The notes: generated by a model from the letters alone, not told the origin. Shown: positions 18,405 through 60,375, counted from the first letter of the stretch. The stretch is 64,000 nucleotides of DNA from Candidatus Aenigmatarchaeota archaeon (GCA_038999725.1 JAWBWS010000003.1:29464-93463), one strand, 5' to 3'. Numbers and translations: made by a program.

Positions 18405-18407
18405 TTT

Positions 18408-21792: not shown

Positions 21793-21814
21793 CTTTCCCC
21801 GCCTTTCTTAAATC

Positions 21815-45594: not shown

Positions 45595-45666
45595 TGACAA
45601 TGTTTGCAAAGTTAAATTTGATGAAATATTTAAAATAAAAATCGGAATAAAATTAAAGGGGAGATT

Positions 45667-46953
45667 ATGCTGGATATAAAGCTTATCAGAGAGAACCCAA
45701 ATCTTGTTAGGGAAAATTTGAGGAAAAGGCAAGATCCTGAAAAACTAAAGCTTTTGGAAGAGGTCATAAATCTAGATAAAAGTTGGAGGGAGACACAAAC
45801 AGAAATAAACAAACTCAGACAAAAGAGGAATGATTTGAGCAGAAAGATATCAGCGATGAAAAAGGAAGGAAAAGATATTACAAAACTTTTGGAGGAAGCC
45901 GAGAAAATTCCCGATGAAATAAAAAAATTGGAAAAAAAGGCTGAAGAGCTCCAACAAAAAATAAGATATGGCTTGCTGAGACTTCCAAATCTTTTGGACG
46001 AGAGTGTGCCCTACGGTAAAGATGAAAATGATAATGTGGAAATAAGGAGATGGGGTTCCCCACCAAAGTTTGATTTTGATCCAAAAAGTCATTTGGAGAT
46101 ATTGAAGAATTTGGATTTGATAGATCAAGAAAGGGCAGCAAGAGCAGCATGTGCTGGCTTCTTCTACTTCAAAGAAGAGCTTGTTTTGTTGGATTTGGCG
46201 ATTCAAAGGTTTGCGATAGACTTTCTCAGAAAAAAAGGCTTCATTTTGATTGAACCACCTTTCATGATAAACAGGCAAGCTTATGAAGGCATGATTGATC
46301 CAGGTGATTTTGAAACAATGACTTATAAAATTGAAGGCGAGCCCCTCTATTTAATAGCAACAGCTGAACATCCTTTAGGAGCAATGTTTATGAATGAAGT
46401 TTTTGACAAAAAAGATTTGCCCTTAAAACTTTGTGGAGTTTCCCCTTGTTTCAGGAAAGAGATTGGAGCACATGGAAAATTCACTAAAGGTTTGTTCAGG
46501 ATGCATCAATTCAACAAGGTTGAGCAATTTATTTTTTGTTTGCCAGAGCAAAGTAAAGAGATGCATGAAGAAATACAAAGGAATTCTGAAGAACTTTATC
46601 AACAGCTTGGCTTACATTATCGTGTTGTTCTTGTCTGCACTGGTGATATGGGTACTGTAGCTGCAAAGAAGTATGATATCGAATGCTGGATGGCTGATGG
46701 AAAATTTAGAGAAACAGGGAGCAATTCAAACTGTACAGACTATCAAGCTCGCAGATTGAACATAAGATATAGGGAAGGTCCTGGAAAGCCGCCAGCTGGC
46801 TTTGTCCATACCTTGAACAACACAGCTTTAGCCACAAGCAGGACAATGATAGCTATCATTGAACAATTCCAGCAAAAAGATGGGAGTGTTATAATTCCCA
46901 AAGTTCTGAGACCTTACATGAATGGCATCGAAAGGTTAGAAAAAAAGAGTTAG
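45667..46953 (+). CDS. serS: seryl-tRNA synthetase
   Basis: N-terminal coiled coil; class II motifs; 428 aa. Confidence 0.9.
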   Translation: MLDIKLIRENPNLVRENLRKRQDPEKLKLLEEVINLDKSWRETQTEINKLRQKRNDLSRKISAMKKEGKDITKLLEEAEKIPDEIKKLEKKAEELQQKIRYGLLRLPNLLDESVPYGKDENDNVEIRRWGSPPKFDFDPKSHLEILKNLDLIDQERAARAACAGFFYFKEELVLLDLAIQRFAIDFLRKKGFILIEPPFMINRQAYEGMIDPGDFETMTYKIEGEPLYLIATAEHPLGAMFMNEVFDKKDLPLKLCGVSPCFRKEIGAHGKFTKGLFRMHQFNKVEQFIFCLPEQSKEMHEEIQRNSEELYQQLGLHYRVVLVCTGDMGTVAAKKYDIECWMADGKFRETGSNSNCTDYQARRLNIRYREGPGKPPAGFVHTLNNTALATSRTMIAIIEQFQQKDGSVIIPKVLRPYMNGIERLEKKS

Positions 46954-46986
46954 CTTCCTTTTTTCTTAAGATTAAAAGGTTTTAAA

Positions 46987-47856
46987 TTAAAAAGCAAAAT
47001 TCATGAAAAGGAATAACAAGTCACCGAAAAATAAAGTGAAGACCAAAGCTAAAGGGAATGTTGGTGCAAATCTCACACCTTCTTTAATCCAAACAAATTT
47101 CTTCCCAGATTTTTTAATTTTTTCCAATTCTTTTTCGGTTATCCCTTCCCAAACTTTGCTTTCAAGCAAAACATCACCAACTTTAAGCTTCGAGATGTGG
47201 ATCTTTCTTTTGAACGCTTTCTCCTCAACAGCTTTAACAAAAATCCAGAGTAAAAACAAGAGGAAAGTTAGGGCCAAGGCCAAGAGAGAATTTGAAAATA
47301 TGAGATGAAAATTCACGGGTAATGCAAAGAAGTTGAAGAGCAAAATGTTTCCAAGAGAAAAGAGAAGAAATAAAGCTATTATTGAGGCTACAATAATTTT
47401 GGAGCTTGATTTCACATTTTTCAAAAACTCCTTGATAATTTTTTTGTTAAAGAGTGCGAGCACAAAAGCATAAACTAGCATGTAGGCAGCACCAACTATG
47501 AAAACATTCAAAAGGTAGCTGAAGGAAAAGGTGAAACGAAGATTTTTAGCCAAAGGTGAGATGAAGGGAGAAAAAAAGCCAATGGCAGCCAGAACTTTGG
47601 CATCACCACCTCCCCATTGCCCAAGTCTGTACATTAAAAAGCCAAAGGCGAGGAGAGAAATTCCGTGTAATAGACTTTCAATTAGGGGGACAAGGCTCAA
47701 CTCAAACAAACTTTTGAAAAAAGCCAAAATCAAAGCCAATGCAATCATGGTATGGGGAATTTCGTCAGGAATTTCAGTTGGCGTTATTTTGAGGTCAAAA
47801 GCTGCTGCTAGAGAAGAACCAAAAAGAGCGATTAAAAAACCAATTAATTCCAACAT
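46987..47856 (-). CDS. A24-family prepilin/preflagellin peptidase (FlaK/PibD-like) with C-terminal extension
   Basis: First Asp in AAAFDLK and second Asp in QWGGGDAKVLAAIG (GGGDxK signature). Confidence 0.6.
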   Translation of the reverse strand: MLELIGFLIALFGSSLAAAFDLKITPTEIPDEIPHTMIALALILAFFKSLFELSLVPLIESLLHGISLLAFGFLMYRLGQWGGGDAKVLAAIGFFSPFISPLAKNLRFTFSFSYLLNVFIVGAAYMLVYAFVLALFNKKIIKEFLKNVKSSSKIIVASIIALFLLFSLGNILLFNFFALPVNFHLIFSNSLLALALTFLLFLLWIFVKAVEEKAFKRKIHISKLKVGDVLLESKVWEGITEKELEKIKKSGKKFVWIKEGVRFAPTFPLALVFTLFFGDLLFLFMNFAF

Positions 47857-47893
47857 ATAAATTTATTTTGTAGCTTGAACTATTAAATTAGAG

Positions 47894-48040
47894 CTAAGAA
47901 TATTTTTTGAAACCAATCTTCTTCGCCTCTTCCCTAAAACATTGCCTGCAATAAAAAAGACCGTACTTGCTTATTATTCCTCTACCAACCCTCCCACACT
48001 TCCTACAAACCCTTCTTGCCTTTCCATATTTATGAGGCAT
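47894..48040 (-). CDS. rps14: 30S ribosomal protein S14 (uS14, Zn-ribbon type)
   Basis: Unlisted 48-aa [51 protein letters not shown]. Confidence 0.8.
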
Positions 48041-48229
48041 TCAACCACCAAAATCTCCAAAAATCTCAACGATGTCCACAAATCCAAAGGCTTCCATTTT
48101 AACTATATGTTCAAAAACTCTTGTGTAAACTTTTTCGAAATCCTTTTCCATTTCAGCTTTCCTCAAAATTGCTCCATTCAGCTTCACCAGAATTTCATCT
48201 TCAATTTCACACAAAATTTCTTCACTCAA
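48041..48229 (-). CDS. 62-aa acidic hypothetical protein inserted between rpl5 and rps14
   Basis: Exactly fills the L5-S14 gap (overlaps L5 by 8 nt and abuts the S14 start); MSEEILCEIEDEILVKLNGAILRKAEMEKDFEKVY... Confidence 0.35.
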   Translation of the reverse strand: MSEEILCEIEDEILVKLNGAILRKAEMEKDFEKVYTRVFEHIVKMEAFGFVDIVEIFGDFGG

Positions 48230-48728
48230 TTATCTCCACCCCAAAATTGTTTTTCACCCATTCCATAGCCTCTTCTCTAGTGATTTTATGTTTTGTGGGT
48301 ATTTTTCTCTTCTGAATTCTTCTATATTTTATTCTGTAGCCACGCCTCTTTAAACTCACACAAACATCCAAACCAAACATACCAACTTCATGGGAATATT
48401 TCACTCCAGGTATGTCTATGTATTCCTTTATTCCAAAACTGAAATTTCCATCTTTATCAAACTGAGAAGATTTGAGTCTTTTTTCCACAGCATGTAGAGC
48501 CTTTTTTAAAAAATCTTCAGCTTCCTTCTTCCTTAGAGTTATCATAACCCCTACCGGCTTTCCTTTTGCAATTCCGAAAGTGCTTCTTTTCTTTGACTTT
48601 GTTATTGCAGGTTTCCTTCCAGTTAAAATTTCCAAGAGCTTCTTCGCCCTTTCAATTTTTTGAAGATCGCCAGCACATCCAATGTTGAGTGTGAGTTTAT
48701 CTATTTCAATTCTTCTCATGGGATTCAT
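48222..48728 (-). CDS. rpl5: 50S ribosomal protein L5 (uL5)
   Basis: Sequence pattern and operon position. Confidence 0.9.
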   Translation of the reverse strand: MNPMRRIEIDKLTLNIGCAGDLQKIERAKKLLEILTGRKPAITKSKKRSTFGIAKGKPVGVMITLRKKEAEDFLKKALHAVEKRLKSSQFDKDGNFSFGIKEYIDIPGVKYSHEVGMFGLDVCVSLKRRGYRIKYRRIQKRKIPTKHKITREEAMEWVKNNFGVEIIE

Positions 48729-49426
48729 TCAACCACCCTTATCACTGGGCTTTCTCTACCAACTAGAAAGAAATAGTCAAAAATGACTTCCAACATTTTA
48801 CCTTCACTTTCACATATAACTTTCCTGGGTTCAAGCGATCTCTTGACAACTATTTCCACAACTTTAGCAAGCTTTCCAGCATTTTTCCCTTTCAGTATTA
48901 GCCCTACTGCTCCCTTTTCTAGCTTGAAGTGGTCAAGAATCTTGAGAGAGGGTAATTCTACAAGGATAGAATCCCCAACCTTGTAAACATCTTCCTCCAC
49001 TAACAAATTTTTACCATCATGAAAGTTAAGTTGAGTCCTTCCTCCCTTCACAACCCTTTTATTCCTTATGTTTAAAATTTTCATGTTTGCTTCCTTTTCC
49101 GGAATTTCGATAAGCTTTAAACCCTTTTCAAAGGGGACAATTCTGTAATTTTTGTTCAACTTTGGGATTGAGATAACATCCATCAAGCCGGCAGGATAGC
49201 CTGGATCCTTTCTTGGTTTTCCATCAACCAAAATTTCCCCCATTTTAATTATCAATCTTGCCTCCCTTCCCTTCTCGACCAAACCCAAAATATCCCTCAC
49301 GATAACCAAAAGTGGAATGCATTCAAATTTCTTATGTGGCCCAGGACTTGGTGAAACTACCCAAGTAGTCAGTTTCTTCGGTACTTTCCAAAATTCTGGT
49401 GCTAAAAGTCTTTTCAACTTTCCCAT
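48725..49426 (-). CDS. rps4e: 30S ribosomal protein S4e
   Basis: 233 aa; S4e pattern; position between L24 and L5. Confidence 0.9.
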   Translation of the reverse strand: MGKLKRLLAPEFWKVPKKLTTWVVSPSPGPHKKFECIPLLVIVRDILGLVEKGREARLIIKMGEILVDGKPRKDPGYPAGLMDVISIPKLNKNYRIVPFEKGLKLIEIPEKEANMKILNIRNKRVVKGGRTQLNFHDGKNLLVEEDVYKVGDSILVELPSLKILDHFKLEKGAVGLILKGKNAGKLAKVVEIVVKRSLEPRKVICESEGKMLEVIFDYFFLVGRESPVIRVVE

Positions 49427-49430
49427 TTTC

Positions 49431-49802
49431 TCACTTCTTTATTTTTCTTTCAAGCATCTCCACCCTTTTCTTATCATCTAAATTCAAGCTTATAATCTTT
49501 AAATTTGAGGGATGAATTGGAACTTGAACTTCAGCTCCTGTTGTTTTCTTTCTCGTTACACCTTCTATATAGACTTTGTAATTTTTCAAGTCAACTTTTG
49601 AAATCTTTCCCCTTTTTCCCTTGAAAGCTCCAACCATAATTTCAACTTCATCTCCTTTTCTCACAGGTAAACTCCTTCTCTTGTATTTTTCTCTTAGCTC
49701 TTTTGACAAATGGGCTGCCATCATCTTTCTCCTTACATGTAGAGGAGCTGTAAGTAAAAACTTCCTTTGTTTCCTCGCCTTTTTGGATTTTGGTCTTTTC
49801 AT
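49431..49802 (-). CDS. rpl24: 50S ribosomal protein L24 (uL24)
   Basis: KOW motif GDEVEIMVGAFKGKRGKI. Confidence 0.85.
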   Translation of the reverse strand: MKRPKSKKARKQRKFLLTAPLHVRRKMMAAHLSKELREKYKRRSLPVRKGDEVEIMVGAFKGKRGKISKVDLKNYKVYIEGVTRKKTTGAEVQVPIHPSNLKIISLNLDDKKRVEMLERKIKK

Positions 49803-50201
49803 TCAAACCACCATGCTTGCAATTTTTCCTATTGATGAAAATCTCTCTACAGCTTCCTTTGCCACGGGCCCTTTTATTTCTGTCCCTTTTGGTTCAAAAT
49901 TCTCATCAACTATAACTGCAGCATTATCTTCAAAACTCACCCTGAGCCCAGAGGGTCTTCTGTATTCAGCCTTTTGCCTTATTATAACAGCATTAACAAC
50001 CTGTTTCCTCATCTTTACTTCACCTTTTTTAACAGAGCATTTAACAACATCACCAACACCAGCTCTCGGTTGTCTCCTTCTCACTCCCTTGTAACCAAAA
50101 ACAGAAATTATTTGCAAAACTTTAGCTCCAGTATTATCCGCACAATTCAAATAACTTCCGACATTCAAAGCTTTTGTCACACTCGCCTTAACAGCTTTCA
50201 T
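49803..50201 (-). CDS. rpl14: 50S ribosomal protein L14 (uL14)
   Basis: NCADNTGAK...IIRQK conserved pattern. Confidence 0.9.
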
Positions 50202-50578
50202 TTCCCTCTCCTCTCTACCACTTCAACCACGACAAAAGCTTTAGTCTTGCTCAAAGCTCTACACTCGGCTATTTTAACTATATCACCCTCCTTCGCATCT
50301 ATGCATTCTGGATTATAAGCAGCAATTCTCGAATGTCTTCTTTCATATCTTTCATACTTTGGAACATAGTGTAAATAATTTCTTTCTATTATTGCAGTTT
50401 TTTGTGCTTTTGTTGAAACAACTTTACCTTGAAGTATTTTTCCACGAATTTTCAAGTGACCATGAAAAGGACACTTCCTATCCTTACAAACTGATTTGGG
50501 TGGGTTAACATCTATACCAATATCCCTTGTTGTTTTTTCTTTCAATTTCTCACCTTCGGGCTTAAATTTTATTTTCAT
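50198..50578 (-). CDS. rps17: 30S ribosomal protein S17 (uS17)
   Basis: [40 protein letters not shown]. Confidence 0.85.
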
Positions 50579-50657
50579 CCAATATTTTAATCTTTTGGAT
50601 TTTGAACTTTTAATTCTTTAAAAATATAGGATAAAAGTTTATAGGATTTTGGATGAG

Positions 50658-50942
50658 TCACCATCTCATAAACTTCTTTTTAATCCTATCTTCAGGTCTT
50701 GCCACCAAGATTTTACCTTCTACTTCAACTTTTTCACCAGAAGGTAAAGTGAAAATGAAAACAGAGTTTGCCTTCGGTATTATTTTTTCTCTCCCTTCTT
50801 CCGTTTCTATCTTGAAGGTTTTATAGGTTTCATCTATGATTTTACCTTTCAAACCTTTTTGTGTGGGGTCGGTAGATTTAGCTATTTTAACCTCTAAACC
50901 AATTAGCTCATGTCTAACCAAGTTTTTTGGTGTTATTGGCAT
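50658..50942 (-). CDS. rnp1: RNase P protein component 1 (Rpp29/Pop4)
   Basis: LIGLEVKIAKSTDPTQKGLKGKIIDETYKTFKIETEEG is Rpp29-like; canonical position between L29/SUI1 and S17. Confidence 0.7.
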   Translation of the reverse strand: MPITPKNLVRHELIGLEVKIAKSTDPTQKGLKGKIIDETYKTFKIETEEGREKIIPKANSVFIFTLPSGEKVEVEGKILVARPEDRIKKKFMRW

Positions 50943-50962
50943 AAGATAAATTTTAATTGAAT

Positions 50963-51298
50963 TTAACTTATCTCTATCTGTTCAGCTTGATAGCCAAGTT
51001 TGATGAGCAAGTCTTTAAGTTTGTTCCTGTGGTCACCTTGAAGTTCTATGTGGTTGTTTTTAAAAGTTCCTCCACAAGCCAATTTTGATTTTAAATGAGA
51101 AGCAATTTCTTTAGCATTTTCCTTTATACCCTCAATTATTGTTATTGGTTTGCCAAACTTCCTCTTTTCTATGTAAATCTTTATCTTCTCTTCTTCCCTT
51201 TCTAAAGCTCTGCAAGTACAAAGCTCTGTAGGTAAACCACACTTTGAACAAATTCCAAGAGATGCAGGAGCTCCACAAGTTGGGCAAACCTCTGTCAT
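50963..51298 (-). CDS. translation initiation factor SUI1 (aSUI1/eIF1) with N-terminal zinc finger
   Basis: CPTCG...CSKCG N-terminus; SUI1 core KIKIYIEKRKFGKPITIIEGI...LKSKLACGGTFKNNHIELQGDHRNKLKDLLIKLGY. Confidence 0.8.
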   Translation of the reverse strand: MTEVCPTCGAPASLGICSKCGLPTELCTCRALEREEEKIKIYIEKRKFGKPITIIEGIKENAKEIASHLKSKLACGGTFKNNHIELQGDHRNKLKDLLIKLGYQAEQIEIS

Positions 51299-51300
51299 CT

Positions 51301-51540
51301 CTACTTCTTTCCCTCTCTTCTTTCTTTTTTTATTGTAAGGATTCTAGCAATGGTCTTTCTTATTTGTCTTATTCTTCCAGGATTTTTTATAGGCCTCCCC
51401 AATTTTATGTTTCCCCGTTCTTTAAGAAGTTCTAATTTTAGTTCAGAAAGCTTTTTATCCAATTCTTCTTCTTTGAGTTCTCTCAGCTGTTTAATCGCCT
51501 TCAACAACCTTTTCCTCCTTTCTTTCTTTTTCTTTTTCAA
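51301..51540 (-). CDS. rpl29: 50S ribosomal protein L29 (uL29)
   Basis: LRELKEEELDKKLSELKLELLKERGN. Confidence 0.8.
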   Translation of the reverse strand: MKKKKKERRKRLLKAIKQLRELKEEELDKKLSELKLELLKERGNIKLGRPIKNPGRIRQIRKTIARILTIKKERREGKK

Positions 51541-52153
51541 CTATAAATTCTTTTTCTTCCCCACCTTTCTCAAATACAAATTCCTTTGGCATCTTTTTCA
51601 TTATCTTCACTTCTATCCCAACTATTCCAGGTTTAATTTTGGCCTGTGCATAGCTAGTTTCAACAAGTGTTTCAGCATAATCACCAGAAAAAGCCACAAA
51701 CCCTTTTTTAAATTTCTGAAATCTTGATCTTTCTTTACCAGCAAGCTTTCCTCCAATCTTAATTTGAACTCCTATAGCACCGGCCTTCATCACCTCATCT
51801 AAATAGTAATTTGCAACTTTCTTGTAGTTTATTCCCCTTTCAATTGCATTCGCAACCCTTCTTGCAACTATGTGCGCATCCAGGAAAGGATTTGCAACTT
51901 CCTTTACATCGATAAGCGGATTTTCAAAATTAAACTTCTTTTTTATTTCTTCAGTTATCTCTTCAACTTTCTTTCCAGACCTTCCAACCACAAGACCAGG
52001 TTTATGAGCAAAAATTATGAGCCTTGTTCCCAAGGGTGTTCTCTGGATTTCTGTATGACTGTACCCAGCCTTCTCAAATTTCTTTGCCAAATAAGCTTCA
52101 ACCTCGGATTCTTTTATTCCTTCCTTAACAAAAATCTTCTCGGTTGCCATCAT
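51491..52153 (-). CDS. rps3: 30S ribosomal protein S3 (uS3)
   Basis: KH domain plus the S3 C-terminal domain; the annotated overlap with L29 suggests an alternative L29 start. Confidence 0.9.
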   Translation of the reverse strand: MMATEKIFVKEGIKESEVEAYLAKKFEKAGYSHTEIQRTPLGTRLIIFAHKPGLVVGRSGKKVEEITEEIKKKFNFENPLIDVKEVANPFLDAHIVARRVANAIERGINYKKVANYYLDEVMKAGAIGVQIKIGGKLAGKERSRFQKFKKGFVAFSGDYAETLVETSYAQAKIKPGIVGIEVKIMKKMPKEFVFEKGGEEKEFIVEKEKERKEEKVVEGD

Positions 52154-52560
52154 CTTTCCTCCAGCTCTACAGTTAAATTAACGGCTTTCCTCCTTTGCCT
52201 TCGAAGATGCCATAAACTTCTCGGCCTGTAGAATCTTAAGCCTTTATCTGCTTTTATTTCTTTGAGAAAAAGCCTACCAGGATTCAACCCCTTTTGTCTT
52301 GCGTTGGCTTCAGCTGTTTTCAGGAGTTCCAAGAACTTGTTTGCGGCTTTTGTGTAGTACTTTCCTTTTATGTTTATTTTCTTGGAGAGCAAATCTTCCA
52401 AAAATTTTTTTGCTTTCTCAAGTTTTTTTCTTTTCAAACTTTTACAAAGGACTAGAGAGTGCTTCAAAGAGATTCTTGCATTTGAGATTTTTGCTGTTGC
52501 TGTTTTCATGTTATCACTATGTTGGCTTGGCCGCATAGAACTTGCTTCCTCTGGTAGCAC
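52150..52560 (-). CDS. rpl22: 50S ribosomal protein L22 (uL22); probable start at the internal Met (MKTATAK)
   Basis: KYYTKAANKFLELLKTAEANARQKGLNPGRLFLKEIKADKG. Confidence 0.85.
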   Translation of the reverse strand: MLPEEASSMRPSQHSDNMKTATAKISNARISLKHSLVLCKSLKRKKLEKAKKFLEDLLSKKINIKGKYYTKAANKFLELLKTAEANARQKGLNPGRLFLKEIKADKGLRFYRPRSLWHLRRQRRKAVNLTVELEER

Positions 52561-52954
52561 CTATTCCTGGGGCAGAATGCTTCACCCTTTTTATTGGAAT
52601 GGAAAATTCACCAAGTCTGTGACCAACCATTTCTGGAGTGATGTAAACACTCACCCACTCTTTACCATTGTAAACACCAAGCTTGGCACCAATCATCTGA
52701 GGCAAAATTATCATATCCCTCAGATGGGTCTTGTGGAAACCATCTGGATTTTTCTTTATTTCTTCCAAAAGCTTTTTTTGATTTTCTTGCAAACCCCTTT
52801 TAAGGGTTCTTCTTTCTTTTGCAGTTAGCAACTTGGCAAATTCTTCTATACTCATCTGTTTGAGTTCTTCTAAAGTTTTGCCCCTGAAAGTGAAAACCTT
52901 TGCCATCCTAACCACCCTTTTTCCTTCCCATCCTCTTTGGACTGATTGAACCAA
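52517..52954 (-). CDS. rps19: 30S ribosomal protein S19 (uS19)
   Basis: GVYNGKEWVSVYITPEMVGHRLGEFS. Confidence 0.9.
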   Translation of the reverse strand: MVQSVQRGWEGKRVVRMAKVFTFRGKTLEELKQMSIEEFAKLLTAKERRTLKRGLQENQKKLLEEIKKNPDGFHKTHLRDMIILPQMIGAKLGVYNGKEWVSVYITPEMVGHRLGEFSIPIKRVKHSAPGIGATRGSKFYAAKPT

Positions 52955-53612
52955 CCTTTGCTCCTGGTGGTGTTGAACGCTTCACAGCTTTTGAAGGTCT
53001 CGGCCTCTTACTCTTCCCACCATAAGGATGATCTGTTGGAGTCATGGCAACTCCCGCAGTTCTTGGGTAAAGTTTACCTCTTGCCATCATAGCATGCAAC
53101 TTCTTACCAGCTTTAATCCAAGGCTTCTCAACCCTCCCACTCCCTGCAGGCACGCCAATGGTTGCTCTGCATTCACCAGGTAGTTCAACAATCTTTCCAG
53201 ATGGGAATTGAATTTTAACCTTACCTCCAACTTTACCAATAACAAGTGCAAAAGTCCCACTAGCTCTACAAAGCTTTGGTCCAGATCCGGGATAAGTTTC
53301 CACACAAAAAATTTTTGTTCCTTCAGGAATTTGAGATAGGGGTAAAACATTTCCAACCAAAGGCTCGCCACCATAGGTTATAACATCGCCTGCTTTCAAA
53401 CCTTCTGGTGCCACATGCAGCACTTCTTTTCCATCTTCAAATTTTACTATTGCCACGGGGGCACTTCTCCCAGGGTCATGAACTATATCTTCAACTTTAC
53501 CACTTATTCCCATAATAGGCAAATACTCAACTCTACCTAAATACCTGTGGCTTGGTGCTCTATACCTTGGACCACCTTTTCCTCTAGCTCTTGGAATTAT
53601 TCTTTTCCCCAT
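52908..53612 (-). CDS. rpl2: 50S ribosomal protein L2 (uL2)
   Basis: AMTPTDHPYGGKSKRPRPSKAVKRSTPPGAKVG is the L2 C-terminal signature. Confidence 0.9.
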   Translation of the reverse strand: MGKRIIPRARGKGGPRYRAPSHRYLGRVEYLPIMGISGKVEDIVHDPGRSAPVAIVKFEDGKEVLHVAPEGLKAGDVITYGGEPLVGNVLPLSQIPEGTKIFCVETYPGSGPKLCRASGTFALVIGKVGGKVKIQFPSGKIVELPGECRATIGVPAGSGRVEKPWIKAGKKLHAMMARGKLYPRTAGVAMTPTDHPYGGKSKRPRPSKAVKRSTPPGAKVGSISPKRMGRKKGG

Positions 53613-53701
53613 TTCGACACCGGTATTAATTAATTATGATTTGAATAAAATGAATTTTTAATATTTTTAAAGATTTGTGCCAACTGAAATTAAAAACAAG
53701 A

Positions 53702-53962
53702 TTAAACAATTCCAAGTTTTGTTGCCACATCCCTAGCCTTAAATTCTGGTTTAAGTTTGATGTAGGCCTTTTTCTCACCTTTGAAAGTTATTTCTGTGTT
53801 CACCTTTTCAACTTTCACCTCAAACAATTTCTCGAAGGCTTCTTTTATTTGTTTTTTATTCGCTTTCCTATCAACAATAAAAACTATTTTATTCTCCTTA
53901 TCAATCATTCCCACAGACTTTTCTGTTGTATAAGGATACTTCAAAATCTTGTAAGGATCCAT
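53702..53962 (-). CDS. rpl23: 50S ribosomal protein L23 (uL23)
   Basis: YPYTTEKSVGMIDKENKIVFIVDRKANKKQIKEAFEKLFEVKV. Confidence 0.85.
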   Translation of the reverse strand: MDPYKILKYPYTTEKSVGMIDKENKIVFIVDRKANKKQIKEAFEKLFEVKVEKVNTEITFKGEKKAYIKLKPEFKARDVATKLGIV

Positions 53963-54742
53963 CTACCTTTCCCCCAATTTTTCTATTGCAGATTTTGACC
54001 AGATTGTGAGCCTTCCAGGCACACCACCAGGAGCAAGGATTTCTACATTCAAATTTTGAACCAAACAAACATCCAGTCTCAAGTTCTTTGCAGCCTTGGT
54101 TATACCTTTGTCCTCACTCACGATTATAAGAGGACCAACCTTTTTCTTATATCTTTTACCTTTTATCTTCTTTTCTTTTATTCTCTTCAATTCTTCTTCA
54201 AGCCCGACTTCCTTCAAGAATTTCAGCAATTCTTTACTTTTCTTTACTTCTTGAATTTTATCTTCAACAACTAAAGGCAACTCTTTTAATTTCTCAATCT
54301 TGTGTCCTCTTTTCAGAACAATTTCTTTCATCGCAGTTGCTGCTATAGCAGATTTTATCGCCTTCTTCCTCTCCTTTTCATTTATTTTTTGTTCCCAAAT
54401 CTTCTCAACTTTTGGTGGGTGTGCTTCTCTTCCTTTAACAGCTTGAGGCACAAATCTAGCTCTAAACATTTGTTGCAAAGGAATTTTCCCATGTAAGCGA
54501 GGCATTCTTGCCATTTCTCTTGACATCATCGTCCAGCGATGTCTTCTGTACCCATGGTAATGAGCAGATGTTCTTTTTCCAGCCATGACATCAGTACCAT
54601 AAGCTTGACGCTTGTTGGCTTGTATGGCTAAGAAAGCTCTTCTTATCAAATCTTCTCTCAAAGGCTCTTGAAAAACTTTTGGCAACTCCACTTCACCCAC
54701 CATTTTTCCTTGTAAGTCAAACAAGCCAGCTTTCATTTCCAA
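53963..54742 (-). CDS. rpl4: 50S ribosomal protein L4 (uL4)
   Basis: Size and pattern; position between L3 and L23. Confidence 0.85.
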   Translation of the reverse strand: MEMKAGLFDLQGKMVGEVELPKVFQEPLREDLIRRAFLAIQANKRQAYGTDVMAGKRTSAHYHGYRRHRWTMMSREMARMPRLHGKIPLQQMFRARFVPQAVKGREAHPPKVEKIWEQKINEKERKKAIKSAIAATAMKEIVLKRGHKIEKLKELPLVVEDKIQEVKKSKELLKFLKEVGLEEELKRIKEKKIKGKRYKKKVGPLIIVSEDKGITKAAKNLRLDVCLVQNLNVEILAPGGVPGRLTIWSKSAIEKLGER

Positions 54743-55714
54743 TCACTTCAATATTTCTTTTATTTCTGGTATAAGAAATCTTGCTTTTGGAGGCCTTATT
54801 CCTGCTCTCAATCTTATGAGCCTCTTATTTGGTCCAGGGACGGAGCCTTCCAAGAGCAAGTAATTGCTCTTGATAACACCATAATTTTTAAAACCGCCTT
54901 TAGGGTTGACTTCTTCTCCATTTTCACCAATCTTCAAAATCCTTTTATTGAATTCTGTTCTTGTTTGAAAACCGAGCTGGCCAGCCATTGGGACTGTATA
55001 CCTAACTTTTCCAGGCTGTTCTTGACCCAAAGTTCCAACATGTCTTCTCTTTTCTTTCGCATGTCTAGATTGGATAAAAACACCAAACCTTTTAACAGGG
55101 CCAGCAGTTCCTTTTCCTTTAGTTACTGCTATAACATCAACATACTCACCTTGTCTAAAAACATCAGAAACTTTTAACTCCTTTCCTAAAATTTGCTTGG
55201 CAAACTCAAATTTTTCTCTAATTTCTTTACCACCAACTTCAATTTCAAAAACTTCAGGCTTTTTCTTACCAAGACCGGAAGTTTTGGGTTGGGTGGCAAC
55301 AATAAGTCTAATCTTGGAAATCTTATCTAAGTTTTTTTCTATTTCATTGAGATTTTCTTCATTTGGCCTAACTTTGGTTTTTCTCTCTATTTCTTTTGGC
55401 AAATTTTTCATCCAAGCTTCTGTCAACACTTGAAGGCCCTTTCTTGTGAGTTTGTAAGCTCTTATTCCAACTACTTTTAAAGGCGGACATTCCAACACAG
55501 TTGCTGGGACTGCAATTTCTTGACCAAAGGTGGGAGAACTTTTAACATTGTCTATCAAAATCACGGTAGTCATCCCAGCCTTATAACCAGCAAAATCTAA
55601 GAGCTTTGGTTTTTCTGTTTCCGGATAGGTAGAAACAGTTGGATAAATCCTCTTAGCTCTCTTCCTAGGATAAAATTGAAGCGAGCCTTTTCTTGGTCTT
55701 TTTACAGCCGGCAT
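54743..55714 (-). CDS. rpl3: 50S ribosomal protein L3 (uL3)
   Basis: FAGYKAGMTTV...GKGTAGPVKRFGV... Confidence 0.9.
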   Translation of the reverse strand: MPAVKRPRKGSLQFYPRKRAKRIYPTVSTYPETEKPKLLDFAGYKAGMTTVILIDNVKSSPTFGQEIAVPATVLECPPLKVVGIRAYKLTRKGLQVLTEAWMKNLPKEIERKTKVRPNEENLNEIEKNLDKISKIRLIVATQPKTSGLGKKKPEVFEIEVGGKEIREKFEFAKQILGKELKVSDVFRQGEYVDVIAVTKGKGTAGPVKRFGVFIQSRHAKEKRRHVGTLGQEQPGKVRYTVPMAGQLGFQTRTEFNKRILKIGENGEEVNPKGGFKNYGVIKSNYLLLEGSVPGPNKRLIRLRAGIRPPKARFLIPEIKEILK

Positions 55715-55788
55715 TTTTCATTCCCTGAAATAATGATTAGAAATGGAATAAATAAAAAGGTTTAAGGATTGGGTCAGAATAAATAATT

Positions 55789-56298
55789 ATGGAAGAAAAG
55801 CCTTGTGTTTTTTGCCAGATTGTTGCTAAGCAAATTCCTGCAAGAATTGTTTATGAAGATGAGGATTTTATGGCATTTTTAGATATAAGGCCGCTAAACC
55901 CTGGGCACACTTTACTGATTCCAAAGAAACACTATCGTTGGGTTTACAATGTTGAAAAATTTGAAGAAATGTGGAAAGCTGTGAAGAAAGTAACTTCTGC
56001 AATCATTTCGGCTTTAAATCCGCTTTCAGTTTCTTACGCAACTTTGGGTTTTGAAGTTCCACATGCCCACATCTGGATCATACCAAGGTTTGAAAATGAT
56101 GGACATGGTGGAGCAATAGATTGGAGTGCTGTGAAAGAAATTCCCCCACAACAAATGGATGAGATTGCTAAAAAAATAAGGGAAAAAATTCCAGAGGAAC
56201 CGAAGAAAGTGGAAGAGAAAGTGGAAGAGAAAAAAGAAGAAAAAGAGAGAAGCGAAGAAGAAATATGGTTGATAAGGAGGGAACTGGAAATTACTTGA
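55789..56298 (+). CDS. HIT-family (histidine triad) hydrolase with Lys/Glu-rich C-terminal tail
   Basis: CVFCQI N-terminus and histidine triad VPHAHIWIIPR. Confidence 0.75.
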   Translation: MEEKPCVFCQIVAKQIPARIVYEDEDFMAFLDIRPLNPGHTLLIPKKHYRWVYNVEKFEEMWKAVKKVTSAIISALNPLSVSYATLGFEVPHAHIWIIPRFENDGHGGAIDWSAVKEIPPQQMDEIAKKIREKIPEEPKKVEEKVEEKKEEKERSEEEIWLIRRELEIT

Positions 56299-56385
56299 TT
56301 TCAAATCGAAGCAGAAGCTAAATATAAATCATTTTCAAAACACATTTGGCGTCAATTTCATTTGAAACATGAAGACAATAAATAA

Positions 56386-56393
56386 TTTAAAAA
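56386..56393 (+). promoter_or_regulatory. TATA-box-like element (tttaaaaa) about 22 nt upstream of tRNA-Gly
   Basis: Centred about -22 relative to the tRNA 5' end, close to but short of the typical archaeal promoter position (-26/-27). Confidence 0.3.
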
Positions 56394-56410
56394 GCATTTT
56401 GAATATTAAT

Positions 56411-56500
56411 GCGCCAGTGGTCCAGCCTGGTCTAAGACCCGAGCCTTCCAAGCTCGAGACGGGGGTTCAAAAGGTAAACCTGAAATTCCCCCCTGGCGCA
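56411..56500 (+). tRNA. tRNA-Gly (anticodon UCC) with a putative ~15-nt non-canonical intron in the T-loop
   Basis: Acceptor GCGCCAG/CTGGCGC, D-loop with GG, anticodon stem CGAGC/GCTCG with loop CTTCCAA, T-stem GGGGG/CCCCC. The T-loop region is 22 nt (TTCAAA-aggtaaacctgaaat-T) instead of 7. Confidence 0.55.
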
Positions 56501-56510
56501 TGTTTTTGTT
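56501..56510 (+). terminator. T-rich tract (tgtttttgtt) immediately 3' of tRNA-Gly
   Basis: An oligo-T archaeal termination signal. Confidence 0.3.
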
Positions 56511-56530
56511 GATATCCTTAAATAGAGAAA

Positions 56531-57250
56531 TTAAAAAGGGTTGATTTTTAATTTTTTTAATCTTCTTGCCACATGAGGATAAATTATGAGAGTTTCAAAT
56601 TCAATTTTCTTTGGCAAACTTTCATCTATTTCTTTCAATTTTCTCTTGAGAAAGTCAATGTTTTTCTTATCCACAAGATCAATTAAAACAGCTGGATGGC
56701 AAGGAATTTGATGGGTAATACAATATTCCAGAGCCTTAAGCTGAAGGTTGAAAGCTTCAGGCTTTGCTCCAGTTAGCTTTGAAAATTCCTCTTCATCACA
56801 ACCTTTTAAAGAAATCCTGACATACAAATTTTCAAATTTCTTAAGCTCTTTCACATAACCCTCATCACTTCCAAGCAAAATACCATTCGTCTCAAGAATG
56901 AAAGTTAAGTTTTTTGGAATTTTCTCCAACACAGAAATTAAATGCTCTCTTGAGATTGTTGGCTCATTCCCTGTTATCCTCACTTGTTTAAACCCAAATT
57001 TTCTAGCAATTTCAACAAGCTTTGAGGCAACTTCTTCTGGAGAATAGAATTTTCCAATTTTCCCCTCCCTTACCAAATCATTGCTCCAGCAATAAACACA
57101 ACGCAAATTACAACCACAAACATCAGCACTGCTACACCCCAAATAAAAACGTGCTGGTCTAAACCGGTAATATTTTCTATAAACTTTTCCCCCTCTCCTC
57201 CTTGCTACTTTCCTTTCAACATTTTTTGATAACTCAAGTGGATTGTACAC
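56531..57250 (-). CDS. radical SAM enzyme (QueE-like 7-carboxy-7-deazaguanine synthase candidate)
   Basis: CGCNLRCVYCW contains CxxxCxxC followed by W, as in QueE-type small radical SAM proteins; 239 aa. Confidence 0.6.
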   Translation of the reverse strand: MYNPLELSKNVERKVARRRGGKVYRKYYRFRPARFYLGCSSADVCGCNLRCVYCWSNDLVREGKIGKFYSPEEVASKLVEIARKFGFKQVRITGNEPTISREHLISVLEKIPKNLTFILETNGILLGSDEGYVKELKKFENLYVRISLKGCDEEEFSKLTGAKPEAFNLQLKALEYCITHQIPCHPAVLIDLVDKKNIDFLKRKLKEIDESLPKKIEFETLIIYPHVARRLKKLKINPF

Positions 57251-57325
57251 GAAATAATCTTAAAAAGGAGAAAATTTAATCTTTTTAAATCAAATATTCT
57301 TTAAACTATTGTATAAGGTGGTAAC

Positions 57326-57712
57326 TTGAACAAAGACAATTTGGCGGACGCTTTAGTGGCAATAAAGAATGCTGAGAGGGTTGGGAAAAAGGAATGTGTT
57401 ATACCTGCCTCTAAACTTATAAAAGCTGTTTTGAACATTTTGCGGGAAAAGAATTACATAGGCTCTTTTGAGTTCATAGATGATGGGAAATCAGGGAAAT
57501 TCAGGGTAGAGCTCAAAGGTAAAATAATAGATTGTAACGCAATTAAACCAAGATTTTCTGTAAGGGTAGACGAGTTTGAAAAATTTGAGAAAAGATTTTT
57601 ACCTGCGAGAGACATGGGCATGTTGATAGTCTCAACTCCAAAAGGAGTAGTTGACCACAAAAAGGCAAAAGAGATGAGGAGTGGTGGAAAACTTCTGGCT
57701 TATTGCTATTAG
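57326..57712 (+). CDS. rps8: 30S ribosomal protein S8 (uS8)
   Basis: [60 protein letters not shown]. Confidence 0.9.
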
Positions 57713-58242
57713 TGATTTTTATGATTTCGGTTGAGGTGAAAATCCCGGAAAACGTGAAAGTTGAAGTTGAAGGGTCGAAAGTGAAAGTTTCTGGGGAGAA
57801 AGGAGAGCTTGAAAGAAGTTTCCCTGAGAAAGGAATAAGAATTGAATTGGTTGAGGGGAAAATAGTTGTTTCTTCAGAATCGGATAGAAAGCGCTTCAGG
57901 GCTTTGGTTGGGACAATCTCCGCTCACATAAGGAATATGATAGAAGGGGTTACAAAAGGCTTCACTTACAAGCTCAGAGTTGTTTATTCTCATTTTCCAA
58001 TAACAGTTAAAGTTGAGGGTGAAAAAGTTTTAATTCACAATTTTTTGGGTGAGCGTGTACCAAGAGTTGCAAAAATTGTTGGTAAAACTCAAGTTAAAGT
58101 GGAAGGTCAAGAAATTACAGTCTCGGGAATAAATTTGGAGGAGGTTGGCCAAACCGCAGCCAACATAGAGCAAGCTACAAGAATCGTGGGTTATGATAGA
58201 AGAAGGTTTATGGATGGTATTTTTTTAGTGAGTCGTGAATAA
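57703..58242 (+). CDS. rpl6: 50S ribosomal protein L6 (uL6)
   Basis: Two-domain L6 pattern; follows S8. Confidence 0.9.
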
Positions 58243-58334
58243 AATCTTCATCAAAATGTGTTTATGAGCCAGTTATAAGCGAAAGGGACTAATTTAATTT
58301 AATTTTTAACTCTAATTTTTTACTTAGTGATGGA

Positions 58335-58790
58335 TTGAGGGCAAGGTTCCCTACAGTTGACATAATAATTGAAAAAGGTAGTAAGATTGTTTTGATTAAG
58401 AGAAAGAAAGAACCTTTTAAAGACAAGTGGGTCTTACCTGGTGGCCATGTTGAAGAAAATGAAACTGTAGAAGAGGCTGCAATTAGGGAAGCTAAAGAAG
58501 AAACTTCTCTTGATGTTAAGCTAAAGGGAATTCTTGGTGTTTATTCTGATCCTAAGAGAGACCCGAGATATCTGACCATCTCAACTGTTTTTATAGTTAA
58601 GCCATTGAGTAAAAAAATTAAAGCTGGCTCTGATGCTGCAAAAGTGGAGTGGATTGATGTGAGGAAAATTGATTGGAATAATCTTGGTTTTGATCACTTA
58701 AAAATTTTAAAGGATTACTTAAAATATAAGTATAGGAAAGGGACTTATTGGTCTAAAAAGTGGGATCATGAACCCAAGAAAAAAACCTGA
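58335..58790 (+). CDS. NUDIX hydrolase
   Basis: Nudix box GGHVEENETVEEAAIREAKEETSL. Confidence 0.75.
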   Translation: MRARFPTVDIIIEKGSKIVLIKRKKEPFKDKWVLPGGHVEENETVEEAAIREAKEETSLDVKLKGILGVYSDPKRDPRYLTISTVFIVKPLSKKIKAGSDAAKVEWIDVRKIDWNNLGFDHLKILKDYLKYKYRKGTYWSKKWDHEPKKKT

Positions 58791-59106
58791 ATTCAAGAGA
58801 TGGATGAGTGAAAGTTTGAAAAGGCTTAAGCCAAGCTGGAGAAGACCAAGAGGAATGCACAGCAAGATAAGGATAAGAAAAAAAGGAAAGCCCAAGATGC
58901 CAAGCATTGGCTATGGTGCACCAAAAAGTTTAAGATTTCTCCATCCTTCAGGCTTTCAAGAGGTTTTGGTTTCAAACTTGAAAGATTTGGAAAAAGTTAA
59001 TCCTAGCAAGCAAGCCATAAGAATTGCTCATACGGTTGGGAGGAAAAAAAGACAAGAAATCCTGAAGAAGGCTGAAGAGCTGAAGATAAAAGTTTTGAAT
59101 CCCTAA
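58768..59106 (+). CDS. rpl32e: 50S ribosomal protein L32e
   Basis: KRLKPSWRRPRGMHSKIRIRKKGKPKMPSIGYGAPKSLRFLHPSGF. Confidence 0.85.
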   Translation: MNPRKKPEFKRWMSESLKRLKPSWRRPRGMHSKIRIRKKGKPKMPSIGYGAPKSLRFLHPSGFQEVLVSNLKDLEKVNPSKQAIRIAHTVGRKKRQEILKKAEELKIKVLNP

Positions 59107-59292: not shown

Positions 59293-60375
59293 ATGAGAAA
59301 AATGATGAGAAGTGGAGTAGCAGAATTACCTCTTCACTGGGGGAAAGCTCCTAAATGGCTCTTTAATAGGATGGTCAAGCTAGGTAGAACCATTAGTGAA
59401 GTAGTTATCCTTGAATATGGAAGGGATGAATTTTTAAGAAGAATTTCAGACCCATTTTGGTTTCAAGCTTTGGGTTGTGTGATGGGTTGGGATTGGCACA
59501 GCTCAGGCCTGACCACAACTGTCACAGGAGCTTTAAAAGAAGCCAACTTGAAAGAATTTGGAATTGCTGTTCTTGGTGGAAAAGGCAAAGCCAGCAGGAA
59601 AACTCCTTCTGAGATTGAAGTTGTGGGAGAGGAATTTTCTCTCAGTGATAAAAAAATTGAAGAATTGAAGAAAGCTAGCAAGTTGGTTGCAAAAGTTGAT
59701 AATGTTGCCTTACAAGATGGTTTCCAGCTTTACCATCATGCTTTTCTTGTGACTGAAGAAGGAAAATGGGCAGTGATTCAACAAGGCATGAATCCTGAGA
59801 GCAGATATGCAAGGCGTTACCATTGGCTTTCAGAAAAAGTTAAATCTTTTGTTAGTGAGCCTCATTTAGCAATTTGTTGTGACATTAAAACCCAAGCTCT
59901 AAATATGGTTGCCAAAGAGAGTGAAGAAGCCAGAAAATGCTCTGTAGATTTAGTTAAAGATAATCCCATACATTTGAGAAAATACCTTGTCCCAAACAGA
60001 GAGCAAAAGACGATATTCAAATATTTACAAATGCCCCTAAAGCATGAGATTGAACTCAACAACTACAAAGCTTTACAAGAAGCTTTTGAACAGCAGCCAA
60101 AAGATTATGAGGAACTCTTACAAATCAAAGGAATCGGGCCGAAGACTGTGAGAGCTTTGGCTTTGATAAGTAGTTTGATTTTTGGAGCAGAATTAAGTTG
60201 GCGCGATCCTGTTAAATATTCTTTTGCGCATGGGGGTAAAGATGGGCATCCTTACCCTCTAGACAGAAAGACTTACGATGAATCTATTCAATTGCTTCAA
60301 AATGCTATTCAACAAGCAAAACTTAACCAAATGGAGAAAATTGAAGCGATAAAAAGATTAAATGTTTTTTATTGA
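59293..60375 (+). CDS. conserved archaeal hypothetical protein (DUF763-like) with C-terminal helix-hairpin-helix motif
   Basis: N-terminal LPLHWGKAPKWLFNRM; HhH IKGIGPKTVRALALISSLIFG. Confidence 0.4.
   Translation: MRKMMRSGVAELPLHWGKAPKWLFNRMVKLGRTISEVVILEYGRDEFLRRISDPFWFQALGCVMGWDWHSSGLTTTVTGALKEANLKEFGIAVLGGKGKASRKTPSEIEVVGEEFSLSDKKIEELKKASKLVAKVDNVALQDGFQLYHHAFLVTEEGKWAVIQQGMNPESRYARRYHWLSEKVKSFVSEPHLAICCDIKTQALNMVAKESEEARKCSVDLVKDNPIHLRKYLVPNREQKTIFKYLQMPLKHEIELNNYKALQEAFEQQPKDYEELLQIKGIGPKTVRALALISSLIFGAELSWRDPVKYSFAHGGKDGHPYPLDRKTYDESIQLLQNAIQQAKLNQMEKIEAIKRLNVFY

Follow-up and report, generated by a model that had tools for sequence, protein, structure and literature searches.

The canonical archaeal S10-spc-like supercluster has the order L3-L4-L23-L2-S19-L22-S3-L29-SUI1-Rpp29-S17-L14-L24-S4e-L5-S14-S8-L6-L32e-L19e-L18-S5-L30-L15-SecY and was found in Methanothermobacter (L068), Iainarchaeum (L055), Woesearchaeota (L057) and the Aenigmatarchaeota loci L076, L078 and L079. 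In the window (the whole 64,000-nt stretch of Candidatus Aenigmatarchaeota DNA analysed here), one-strand collinearity with S14 directly before S8 is absent and the halves lie on opposite strands. How did this arrangement arise, how old is it, and how would each half be expressed?

The two half-clusters and their junctions

Pfam searches at the curated cut-offs recovered every named cluster gene at the position and on the strand given in the original prediction (Table 1). The minus strand carries L3 to S14 (55714 down to 47894), with L3 transcribed first and S14 last; from 57326 onwards the plus strand carries S8 to SecY. SecY starts at 63568 and continues past the window end at 64000. The cluster content is complete (L3 to L15 plus SUI1, Rpp29 and SecY, all above the Pfam cut-off), and the canonical order is kept inside each half, with opposite orientations.

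The source is a MAG, in which chimeric contigs are possible (see the caution in PMC10833476), and misassembly had been raised as a possible cause of the split. We examined the junctions at 47856-47894, 55714-55789 and 57250-57326. Logan contigs of run SRR21619490, made by another assembler and possibly sharing reads with the MAG, were 100% identical to the window over 43268-49829, 53638-55989 and 56432-58870, and these three contigs together cross all three junctions. Since the same junctions also occur in nine other MAGs from different species, projects and assemblers, three chimeric joins can be excluded as the cause.

Table 1. Positions of the cluster genes, their neighbours and the putative signals in the window
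Feature	Position	Strand	Basis or remark
Seryl-tRNA synthetase (SerRS)	45667-46953	+	NCBIfam serS, 500 bits
A24-family (prepilin/preflagellin peptidase-like) membrane protein	46987-47856	-	Pfam Peptidase_A24
S14	47894-48040	-	48 aa; last gene of L3-S14 half; Pfam Ribosomal_S14, 45.1 bits
62-aa acidic ORF	48041-48229	-	Fills L5/S14 gap
L5	48222-48728	-	Pfam, above curated cut-off
S4e	48725-49426	-	Pfam, above curated cut-off
L24	49431-49802	-	Pfam, above curated cut-off
L14	49803-50201	-	Pfam, above curated cut-off
S17	50198-50578	-	Pfam, above curated cut-off
Rpp29	50658-50942	-	Pfam, above curated cut-off
SUI1	50963-51298	-	Pfam, above curated cut-off
L29	51301-51540	-	Pfam, above curated cut-off
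S3	51491-52153	-	Pfam, above curated cut-off
L22	52150-52560	-	Pfam, above curated cut-off
S19	52517-52954	-	Pfam, above curated cut-off
L2	52908-53612	-	Pfam, above curated cut-off
L23	53702-53962	-	Pfam, above curated cut-off
L4	53963-54742	-	Pfam, above curated cut-off
L3	54743-55714	-	Pfam, above curated cut-off
L3/HIT divergent spacer	55715-55788		74 bp; sequence
AAACCTTTTTATTTATT, BRE/TATA-like 17-mer	55747-55763	-	49 nt upstream of L3 ATG
HIT-family protein	55789-56298	+	Pfam HIT, 68.1 bits (cut-off 21.5)
tRNA-Gly(UCC)	56411-56500	+	15-nt insert in T-loop
Radical-SAM protein	56531-57250	-	Pfam Radical_SAM; between tRNA-Gly and S8
CTTTTTAAATC, TATA-like box	57281-57291	+	35-45 nt upstream of S8 TTG start
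GGTGG, Shine-Dalgarno-like	57318-57322	+	Upstream of S8; sequence
S8	57326-57712	+	TTG start; first gene of second half; Pfam
S8 and L6	57326-58242	+	Pfam
NUDIX hydrolase	58335-58790	+	Pfam NUDIX; between L6 and L32e
L32e	58768-59106	+	Pfam
DUF763 protein	59293-60375	+	Pfam DUF763, 454 bits; between L32e and L19e
L19e, L18, S5, L30	60547-62739	+	Pfam
EamA-type half-transporter	62736-63149	+	Pfam EamA; between L30 and L15
L15 and 5' part of SecY	63155-64000	+	Pfam; reading frame

Distribution and age of the split order

The order SecY-..S8- HIT- L3+..S14+ was found in nine other Aenigmatarchaeota MAGs (L001, L008, L010, L015, L016, L017, L023, L025 and L032), whose L3 identity to the window ranges from 85% to 57%. 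None of the members of the split-order clade has S14 adjacent to S8. Fourteen other archaeal loci have the collinear order L3..S14-S8, among them L076, L078 and L079, which are the nearest Aenigmatarchaeota outside the clade. In a tree of 15 concatenated proteins, built by distance-based neighbour joining (NJ) from tblastn segments with fragmented lineages left out, the split-order genomes all fall in one clade, with a bootstrap of 100; in the L3-only tree the wider clade does not resolve (34% bootstrap). Among the informative members, as placed by NJ, the split order is thus clade-defining, being present in the window and nine loci and absent outside, and its proposed use as a lineage marker is borne out. 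Six L3-related loci (L012, L019, L020, L022, L024 and L028) have no S8 within 10 kb upstream, and for these later changes or earlier branching must be assumed.

The split arrangement is therefore ancient and ancestral to an Aenigmatarchaeota clade. The original prediction was correct that the gene order is split, but not in treating this as a rearrangement of the window's genome; the refuting condition that it set itself, an ancestral order shared by close relatives, thus applies in part. A recent inversion private to that genome or species would fit the geometry, and the pivot's radical-SAM gene is indeed almost confined to it; however, relatives at 57-62% L3 identity (L023 and L025) have the same order, which rules such an event out, and the full bootstrap support, the conserved promoter-like motif upstream of L3 and breakpoints lacking inverted repeats or mobile elements also speak against it. 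Such repeats or elements are typical of recent inversions, without being obligatory. At the breakpoints we found neither IS elements nor long inverted repeats, only short AT-rich arms with a 70-75% match, consistent with chance.

Routes to the divergent arrays

Taken as a whole, the explanation that we hold to be very probable is an ancestral S14/S8 split, inherited vertically, with separate promoters for the two halves. The ancestor of one subclade would have rearranged the L3...SecY supercluster at the S14|S8 junction, with the geometry expected from inverting one half against the other. The product would have been two divergent arrays, one running from L3 to S14 and then the A24 peptidase gene, the other from HIT through tRNA-Gly and S8 to SecY, set head to head at an L3/HIT spacer of 50-110 bp and passed on vertically since. 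After the split, the S8-to-HIT interval would have become a variable zone taking up unrelated genes, such that in the window's genome an opposite-strand radical-SAM gene came to separate S8 from tRNA-Gly, while the 62-aa ORF and the NUDIX, DUF763 and EamA genes would be later settlers inside both halves.

The flanks bear on the number of steps. The A24 peptidase gene follows S14 on the same strand after 37 nt and holds the position that S8 has in collinear genomes; S14 is followed by it instead of by S8 in 11 related loci. The SerRS gene, convergent with the L3-S14 array, comes after the A24 peptidase gene in L001, L003, L005, L008, L016, L021, L025 and L026, and this flank is kept within the clade. 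In collinear Aenigmatarchaeota, EF-1alpha, S10 and a small ORF are found upstream of L3, and none of the collinear relatives sampled has HIT, A24 peptidase or SerRS near L3. Since flanks of the form EF-1alpha-S10-x-L3 are not converted by one inversion into A24 peptidase/SerRS plus HIT, the observed order would call for several events or for an intermediate outside the sample; no relative with pre-inversion flanks was found among the sampled loci. The inversion originally proposed thus agrees with the geometry but, as a single event between S14/S8 and the region upstream of L3, it does not reproduce the flanks when judged from the collinear relatives sampled.

This mismatch also speaks for several translocation or insertion steps that moved the S8-SecY or the L3-S14 block, with the head-to-head order as the end result. 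Many other cluster breaks in Aenigmatarchaeota (at L3|L4 in L075 and L080, at L23|L2 in L024, at L2|S19 in L063, and further in L069, L036 and L048) likewise suggest a generally fluid cluster. We consider this stepwise route possible but rather unlikely, since none of its intermediate states was observed and the order in L023 is reached most economically by one inversion that takes in HIT and tRNA-Gly. A replication origin at the pivot, with divergence keeping highly expressed genes co-directional with replication, would account for the coincidence of the strand switch with a cumulative GC skew minimum at about 55-57 kb. However, at all the window's other strand switches, too, the skew tracks the coding strand, what lies at the pivot ranges from 0.26 to 5 kb between relatives, a search for an Orc1/Cdc6 gene found none in the window, and no repeated ORB-like elements occur in or around the pivot, all of which makes an origin highly improbable.

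An ancestral split is a lineage-specific instance of an already known type of rearrangement. The full gene content and the internal order of each half are those of the canonical supercluster; the S14/S8 break, the opposite strands, HIT and tRNA-Gly between L3 and S8 and the four interspersed non-ribosomal genes are not. Aenigmatarchaeota are DPANN archaea, and resemble other small-genome DPANN in tolerating the erosion of ribosomal-protein operons. In Nanoarchaeum equitans the ribosomal-protein genes are scattered; unlike such scattered genes, both halves here are long intact arrays, of 16 and 10 translation-related genes. The clusters of ARMAN-2 have been described as 'split and not conserved' (PMC10833476), and in Heimdallarchaeote bin6 uL22..uS14, uS8-uL6 and L32e..uL15 are on separate genome segments (PMC10833476). 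Since S14/S8 is broken in bin6 as well, a second archaeal lineage has lost this junction independently; bin6 has three dispersed segments, whereas here the halves adjoin head to head and S8-L6 is still joined to L32e..L15. The bacterial S10/spc cluster is a similarly conserved translation-gene supercluster whose operons are occasionally separated by insertions and inversions (PMC8046335 and PMC6735719). The bacterial operon boundary is S17|L14, whereas the break described here falls inside the spc-equivalent part, and in an archaeon, where promoters are of the TATA/BRE type.

Distal pieces of the cluster were found inverted upstream of L3 in several lineages: S8..SecY in the split clade, L2 in L024, S19..SUI1 in L063 and L4..L5 in L075 and L080. 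Three of these inverted pieces lie immediately downstream of HIT and share its orientation. It is conceivable, if doubtful, that the L3 5' end is a preferred pivot in Aenigmatarchaeota and that the genes fixed in the arrays are translation-associated factors. If so, the divergent HIT/L3 promoter region would keep displaced halves expressed and inversions would be tolerated repeatedly, and the 62-aa ORF, NUDIX and DUF763 would each encode a ribosome- or translation-associated factor that is specific to the lineage and expressed together with the ribosomal proteins.

The L3|HIT spacer, putative promoters and interspersed genes

The true switch point between the halves is the 74-bp L3|HIT spacer. 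The genes placed in a pivot block at 55789-57250 by the original prediction are present, but the block as a whole is not the pivot, since HIT and tRNA-Gly are conserved and lie on the S8 strand. The HIT gene points away from L3 and runs in the same direction as tRNA-Gly and S8, and the HIT- L3+ pair occurs in every clade locus that reaches far enough, plus L063. Of the 26 related loci with this pair, 22 have a spacer of 48-112 nt, the exceptions being L003-L005 (794 nt) and L063 (657 nt).

Within the spacer, AAACCTTTTTATTTATT is identical at 17/17 positions in L001, L002, L003, L032 and L023 and at 16/17 in L026, and is kept down to 57% L3 identity; shuffled spacers of the same loci match it at 13-14 positions at most. 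Transcription of the L3 half would be directed by this BRE/TATA-like element, and that of the S8 half by a separate TATA-like box a short way ahead of S8. L032 has an identical copy of the latter, CTTTTTAAATC, and all ten genomes have a TTTAAA-type box 25-45 nt before S8, which is weak evidence in so AT-rich a genome (A+T of the host, 64%). Separate promoters for the two halves, as originally suggested, are thus plausible, their role being judged from sequence motifs.

Between S8 and HIT the cargo differs between genomes, from 0.26 to 5 kb, and in L023 S8, tRNA-Gly and HIT follow one another within 264 bp. The radical-SAM gene, for which an NCBIfam search gave no model at cut-off, was found at the pivot of the window only, with a 78-aa remnant in L032; it was inserted recently in this lineage, opposite to its neighbours in strand. 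The arrays themselves also contain four unrelated genes absent from the original prediction, three of which (NUDIX, DUF763 and EamA) interrupt the S8-SecY half. The 62-aa ORF in the L3-S14 half is conserved in L001, L003, L005, L021, L032, L008, L010, L018 and L026 (tblastn); it had zero matches in Pfam, NCBIfam and PDB. It is represented by 16 protein clusters, all Aenigmatarchaeota hypothetical proteins, and its alignment has 20 invariant columns. The NUDIX gene, which overlaps the L32e start by 23 nt, and the DUF763 gene are in the same places in L001, L025 and L032; DUF763 adjoins L3 in L039, L041 and L074. Among related loci, EamA is found between L30 and L15 elsewhere only in L032.

Neither ARAGORN nor Rfam detects the tRNA-Gly at 56411-56500 in its unspliced form, whereas ARAGORN returns tRNA-Gly (tcc) after in silico removal of the 15-nt insert. 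With the insert in place, the RNA folds into a cloverleaf whose T-loop is enlarged (z = -3.6); this fold shows a 3-bp hairpin between 6-nt single strands and not a textbook bulge-helix-bulge. An oligo-T run lies 3' of the gene. Orthologs between S8 and HIT were found in L001, L003-5, L008, L010, L015, L016, L017, L023 and L032, and the intron-free ones of relatives are called directly. The triad of the neighbouring HIT protein is not intact by motif alignment, the window having HAHIW with the third His replaced; most clade members have W, R or K at this position, and L023, L016 and L018 retain the His.

Gene order of the split ribosomal-protein array

The ribosomal-protein array is present as two halves on opposite strands, L3 to S14 and S8 to SecY, arranged head to head, and all of the genes named in the original prediction were found at their predicted coordinates by ORF listing and Pfam scans (see table). 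Beyond these, we found a 62-aa ORF, NUDIX, DUF763, EamA and A24-type peptidase genes, and a SerRS gene that follows the A24 peptidase gene in convergent orientation. The observation of a split array is confirmed, and its earlier interpretation is partly supported.

Features of the window, with coordinates in nt
Feature	Position	Strand	Basis or location
L3, L4, L23, L2, S19, L22, S3, L29, SUI1, Rpp29, S17, L14, L24, S4e, L5, S14	55714 down to 47894	-	ORF listing and Pfam
S8, L6, L32e, L19e, L18, S5, L30, L15, SecY start	from 57326	+	ORF listing and Pfam
SecY 5' part	from 63568	+	reading frame
HIT gene	55789-56298	+	between halves
tRNA-Gly(UCC)	56411-56500	+	between halves
radical-SAM gene	56531-57250	-	between halves
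A24-type peptidase gene	46987-47856	-	3' of S14, same strand
62-aa ORF	48041-48229	-	exactly fills L5-S14 gap
NUDIX	58335-58790	+	Pfam; inside S8-SecY half
DUF763	59293-60375	+	Pfam; inside S8-SecY half
EamA	62736-63149	+	Pfam; inside S8-SecY half
L3/HIT spacer (74 bp)	55715-55788		between L3 and HIT
17-mer	55747-55763	-	begins 49 nt 5' of L3 ATG
S8 box	57281-57291		before S8
GGTGG	57318-57322		before S8
tRNA-Ser	1121-1205		just upstream of subtilase
phage-integrase N-terminal-domain ORF	3573-4175		just upstream of subtilase
1592-aa subtilase	4200-8978	-	Peptidase_S8 with PPC domain
1336-aa ORF	13369-17379	-	adjoins low-GC island
low-GC island	about 15000-24000
110-aa ORF	28689-29021	-	sub-threshold Pfam match

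Misassembly at the junctions is excluded by Logan contigs from run SRR21619490, which were produced by a different assembler and may share source reads with the MAG; these matched the window at 100% identity along 43268-49829, 53638-55989 and 56432-58870 and together span all three junctions. An exact look-up of the HIT protein returned no record, and the HIT junction was covered through the L3 look-up. The split order was also found in MAGs from other projects and assemblers.

Distribution and origin of the split

A search with the L3 protein, limited to one genome per species, gave 80 loci (L001-L080), onto which all 32 window proteins were mapped by tblastn. The closest are Candidatus Aenigmatarchaeota MAGs, whose labels are isolate names (DRTY and JZ among them) and whose L3 identity reaches 85%. 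The order SecY- ... S8- HIT- L3+ ... S14+ A24-peptidase+ SerRS- (signs for strand) is also present in L001, L008, L010, L015, L016, L017, L023, L025 and L032, and among loci with the split order L3 identity drops to 57-62%. By the tblastn mapping, S14 is followed by the A24 peptidase in place of S8 in 11 loci, and S14-S8 adjacency was found in no member of the split-order group. The collinear order L3...S14-S8 occurs in 14 loci, including those of Methanothermobacter, Iainarchaeum, Woesearchaeota, Nanohaloarchaea and the Aenigmatarchaeota L076, L078 and L079, together with Thermoprotei, though the latter are rearranged elsewhere.

A neighbour-joining (NJ) tree of L3 only, with 34% bootstrap for the wider group, proved too weak to delimit the clade, so 15 proteins were concatenated (2303 columns) instead. 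In the concatenated tree the window and L001, L003, L005, L008, L010, L016, L017, L018, L021, L023, L025, L026 and L032 form a clade with a bootstrap of 100, next to which the collinear Aenigmatarchaeota L076, L078 and L079 are placed (69%). The split order is seen in every clade member whose locus is long enough to show it. Since the clade has a bootstrap of 100 and the order is found in all informative members, the split is a shared derived character of this Aenigmatarchaeota subclade, and an old one, L3 having diverged to 57% identity since. The 15-protein tree and the gene order thus support its proposed use as a lineage marker; the arrangement is real and defines the subclade, but it goes back to an ancestor of the close relatives and is not an event in this genome. 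The subclade has an easily scored character, in which the A24 peptidase comes after S14, and S8 and L3 face away from each other with HIT and tRNA-Gly between them (head to head), and the split gene order can help to place fragmentary Aenigmatarchaeota MAGs.

The split had been attributed to an inversion with breakpoints at the S14/S8 junction and upstream of L3. The geometry fits, since inverting the block of tRNA-Gly, HIT and L3...S14 against S8...SecY reproduces the L023-type order exactly. A repeat search over 46.9-58.4 kb found no inverted repeats and no IS-like or mobile elements at the breakpoints, as is expected for an old event. The flanks, however, do not point to a clean single inversion. 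In collinear Aenigmatarchaeota (3 kb 5' of L3 compared in L076, L078, L079, L072 and L059), EF-1alpha, S10 and a small membrane ORF lie co-directionally 5' of L3, and tblastn mapping placed no HIT, A24 peptidase or SerRS near the array. One inversion from this EF-1alpha/S10 state does not give the flanks of the window, which call for an unsampled intermediate or more than one step. The same mismatch with the state of the collinear relatives favours a purely stepwise translocation, which is a live rival. The best reading is an inversion-like rearrangement in one or a few steps. The linkage of EF-1alpha, S10 and the membrane ORF before L3 in the collinear Aenigmatarchaeota resembles the bacterial S10-L3 linkage.

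The most conserved archaeal gene array is fluid in Aenigmatarchaeota. In L075 and L080, L4...L5 is inverted against L3 and S13-S4-S11 lie directly before L3, while 3' of HIT, L2 is inverted in L024 and S19...SUI1 in L063. L3 stands alone in L036 and L048, the array stops after L2 in L019, L020 and L022, and insertions of 1-3 kb lie within it in L023, L025 and L032. The recurrence of inverted pieces beside the 5' end of L3, in these few cases, is suggestive of a preferred pivot. Elsewhere, the supercluster of Heimdallarchaeote bin6 is broken into uL22..uS14, uS8-uL6 and L32e..uL15, and ARMAN-2 has split clusters (PMC10833476). The same S14/S8 junction is broken in Heimdallarchaeote bin6 and in the window clade, where the break is independent of that in Heimdallarchaeia. 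In the literature we found no paper on Aenigmarchaeota gene order. The split is a new, well-supported case of a known type of event, its particular feature being that the halves are adjacent and head to head, and it leaves the current understanding of ribosomal gene organisation unchanged.

The pivot between L3 and S8

HIT is divergent from L3 in all clade loci reaching 5' of L3, and in L063; the exception is L012, where a HIT match is absent. The L3/HIT spacer measures 48-112 nt in 22 of 26 loci; in L003-L005 and L063 it extends to several hundred nt. S8 and HIT are 0.26 kb to 5 kb apart, depending on the genome, with S8, tRNA-Gly and HIT lying within 264 bp in the deep-branching L023, and the interval holds unrelated ORFs that vary by genome, several being common to L008, L010, L015, L017 and L025. 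The radical-SAM gene, for which all NCBIfam models scored below cut-off, is present in the window only, with a 78-aa remnant in L032. Since HIT and tRNA-Gly are kept and the content of the interval is variable, the halves in fact switch at the 74-bp L3/HIT spacer, which is smaller than the HIT-to-radical-SAM block originally taken as the pivot. HIT and tRNA-Gly are part of the S8-side array, and the interval around tRNA-Gly is a variable insertion zone. A conserved 163-aa ORF (MEFK.VKIQ.PE.CNLI.GQSHFIK...) recurs between S8 and HIT in L008, L010, L015, L017 and L025 and is absent from the window. In the HIT protein of the window, the motif H-x-H-x-H reads HAHIW; most clade members carry W, R or K in place of the third histidine, which is retained only in L023, L016 and L018.

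The tRNA-Gly gene lies between S8 and HIT, on their strand, in L001, L003-5, L008, L010, L015, L016, L017, L023 and L032. The window gene escapes ARAGORN and Rfam (at the gathering threshold and at E<=1) because its T-loop contains a 15-nt insert. Once this is taken out in silico, ARAGORN calls tRNA-Gly (tcc); folding of the unspliced RNA gives a cloverleaf whose T-loop is enlarged. Only the window and L001 (16 nt; tRNA at 8643-8733 of that locus) have a T-loop insert. The orthologs of eight other relatives have none, and L016 has inserts at other tRNA positions. Non-canonical tRNA introns have been described in DPANN.

The split is predicted to require a promoter before S8. Upstream of L3, the 17-mer AAACCTTTTTATTTATT is shared without mismatch by L001, L002, L003, L032 and the distant L023, and L026 matches it at 16/17; shuffled spacers in these loci give at most 13-14 matches. 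The 17-mer resembles a BRE with a TATA box and, from its position close to mid-spacer, about 36-39 nt away from the L3 and HIT start codons, may be a promoter shared by both genes. A TTTAAA-type box (CTTTTTAAATC in the window) precedes the S8 start codon by 25-45 nt in 10/10 genomes, and an oligo-T run lies 3' of tRNA-Gly in most genomes, including the window and L023. The L3 17-mer, the S8 box and the oligo-T run, as sequence motifs in a genome of 64% A+T, support putative separate promoters for the two halves, as the original prediction had proposed. Expression of S8 by read-through from HIT is unlikely today because of the oligo-T run after the tRNA and the TATA-like box that every genome has before S8. 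A scan of the pivot for bacterial promoters and terminators, which is inapplicable to archaea, gave matches not above shuffles.

The minimum of cumulative GC skew at 55-57 kb would favour a replication origin at the pivot, but it coincides with the switch of coding strand, which the skew also tracks elsewhere in the window. Furthermore, an Orc1/Cdc6 gene is absent from the 64 kb and a repeat search found no repeated ORB-like elements at the pivot. We therefore reject an origin at this site.

Additional genes in the array and elsewhere in the window

The 62-aa ORF is a genuine gene, conserved within the Aenigmatarchaeota lineage of the window and confined to it. Its acidic product falls into 16 protein clusters, every one annotated as hypothetical, and 20 columns of the alignment are invariant. 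The invariant core reads GAILRKAE.E..FEKVY, and the tail at the C-terminus reads E-(I/L)-(F/L)-G-(D/N)-(F/L)-G-G. Searches of Pfam, NCBIfam, PDB sequences and Foldseek gave zero matches, and an AlphaFold model of moderate confidence (pLDDT 74.5) predicts a small three-helix bundle. The C-terminal E-I-F-G-D-F-G-G may resemble the tails of ribosomal stalk proteins.

NUDIX extends 23 nt into the start of L32e, and there is also an overlap between EamA and the stop of L30; the positions of NUDIX and DUF763 are the same in L001, L025 and L032. In another Aenigmatarchaeota clade (L039, L041 and L074) DUF763 lies directly 3' of L3, so that its linkage to ribosomal genes is repeated. A sequence search found no solved structure for DUF763, and we found no literature on its function. 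Because of repeated linkage to ribosomal genes, the 62-aa ORF and DUF763 are candidates for translation-related roles.

The low-GC island (27-29% vs about 36%) carries genes for glycosyltransferases, nucleotidyltransferases and methyltransferases. This is probably a cluster for surface glycans, possibly of horizontal origin. The 1336-aa ORF adjoining it has no Pfam match. The 110-aa ORF has a match to Ribosomal_S30AE of 23.1 bits, below the cut-off of 23.7; this is a bacterial hibernation-factor family and would be unusual in an archaeon. The 1592-aa subtilase is predicted to be a secreted or surface protease, large for a small-genome archaeon, and just upstream of it lie the phage-integrase N-terminal-domain ORF and the tRNA-Ser gene.
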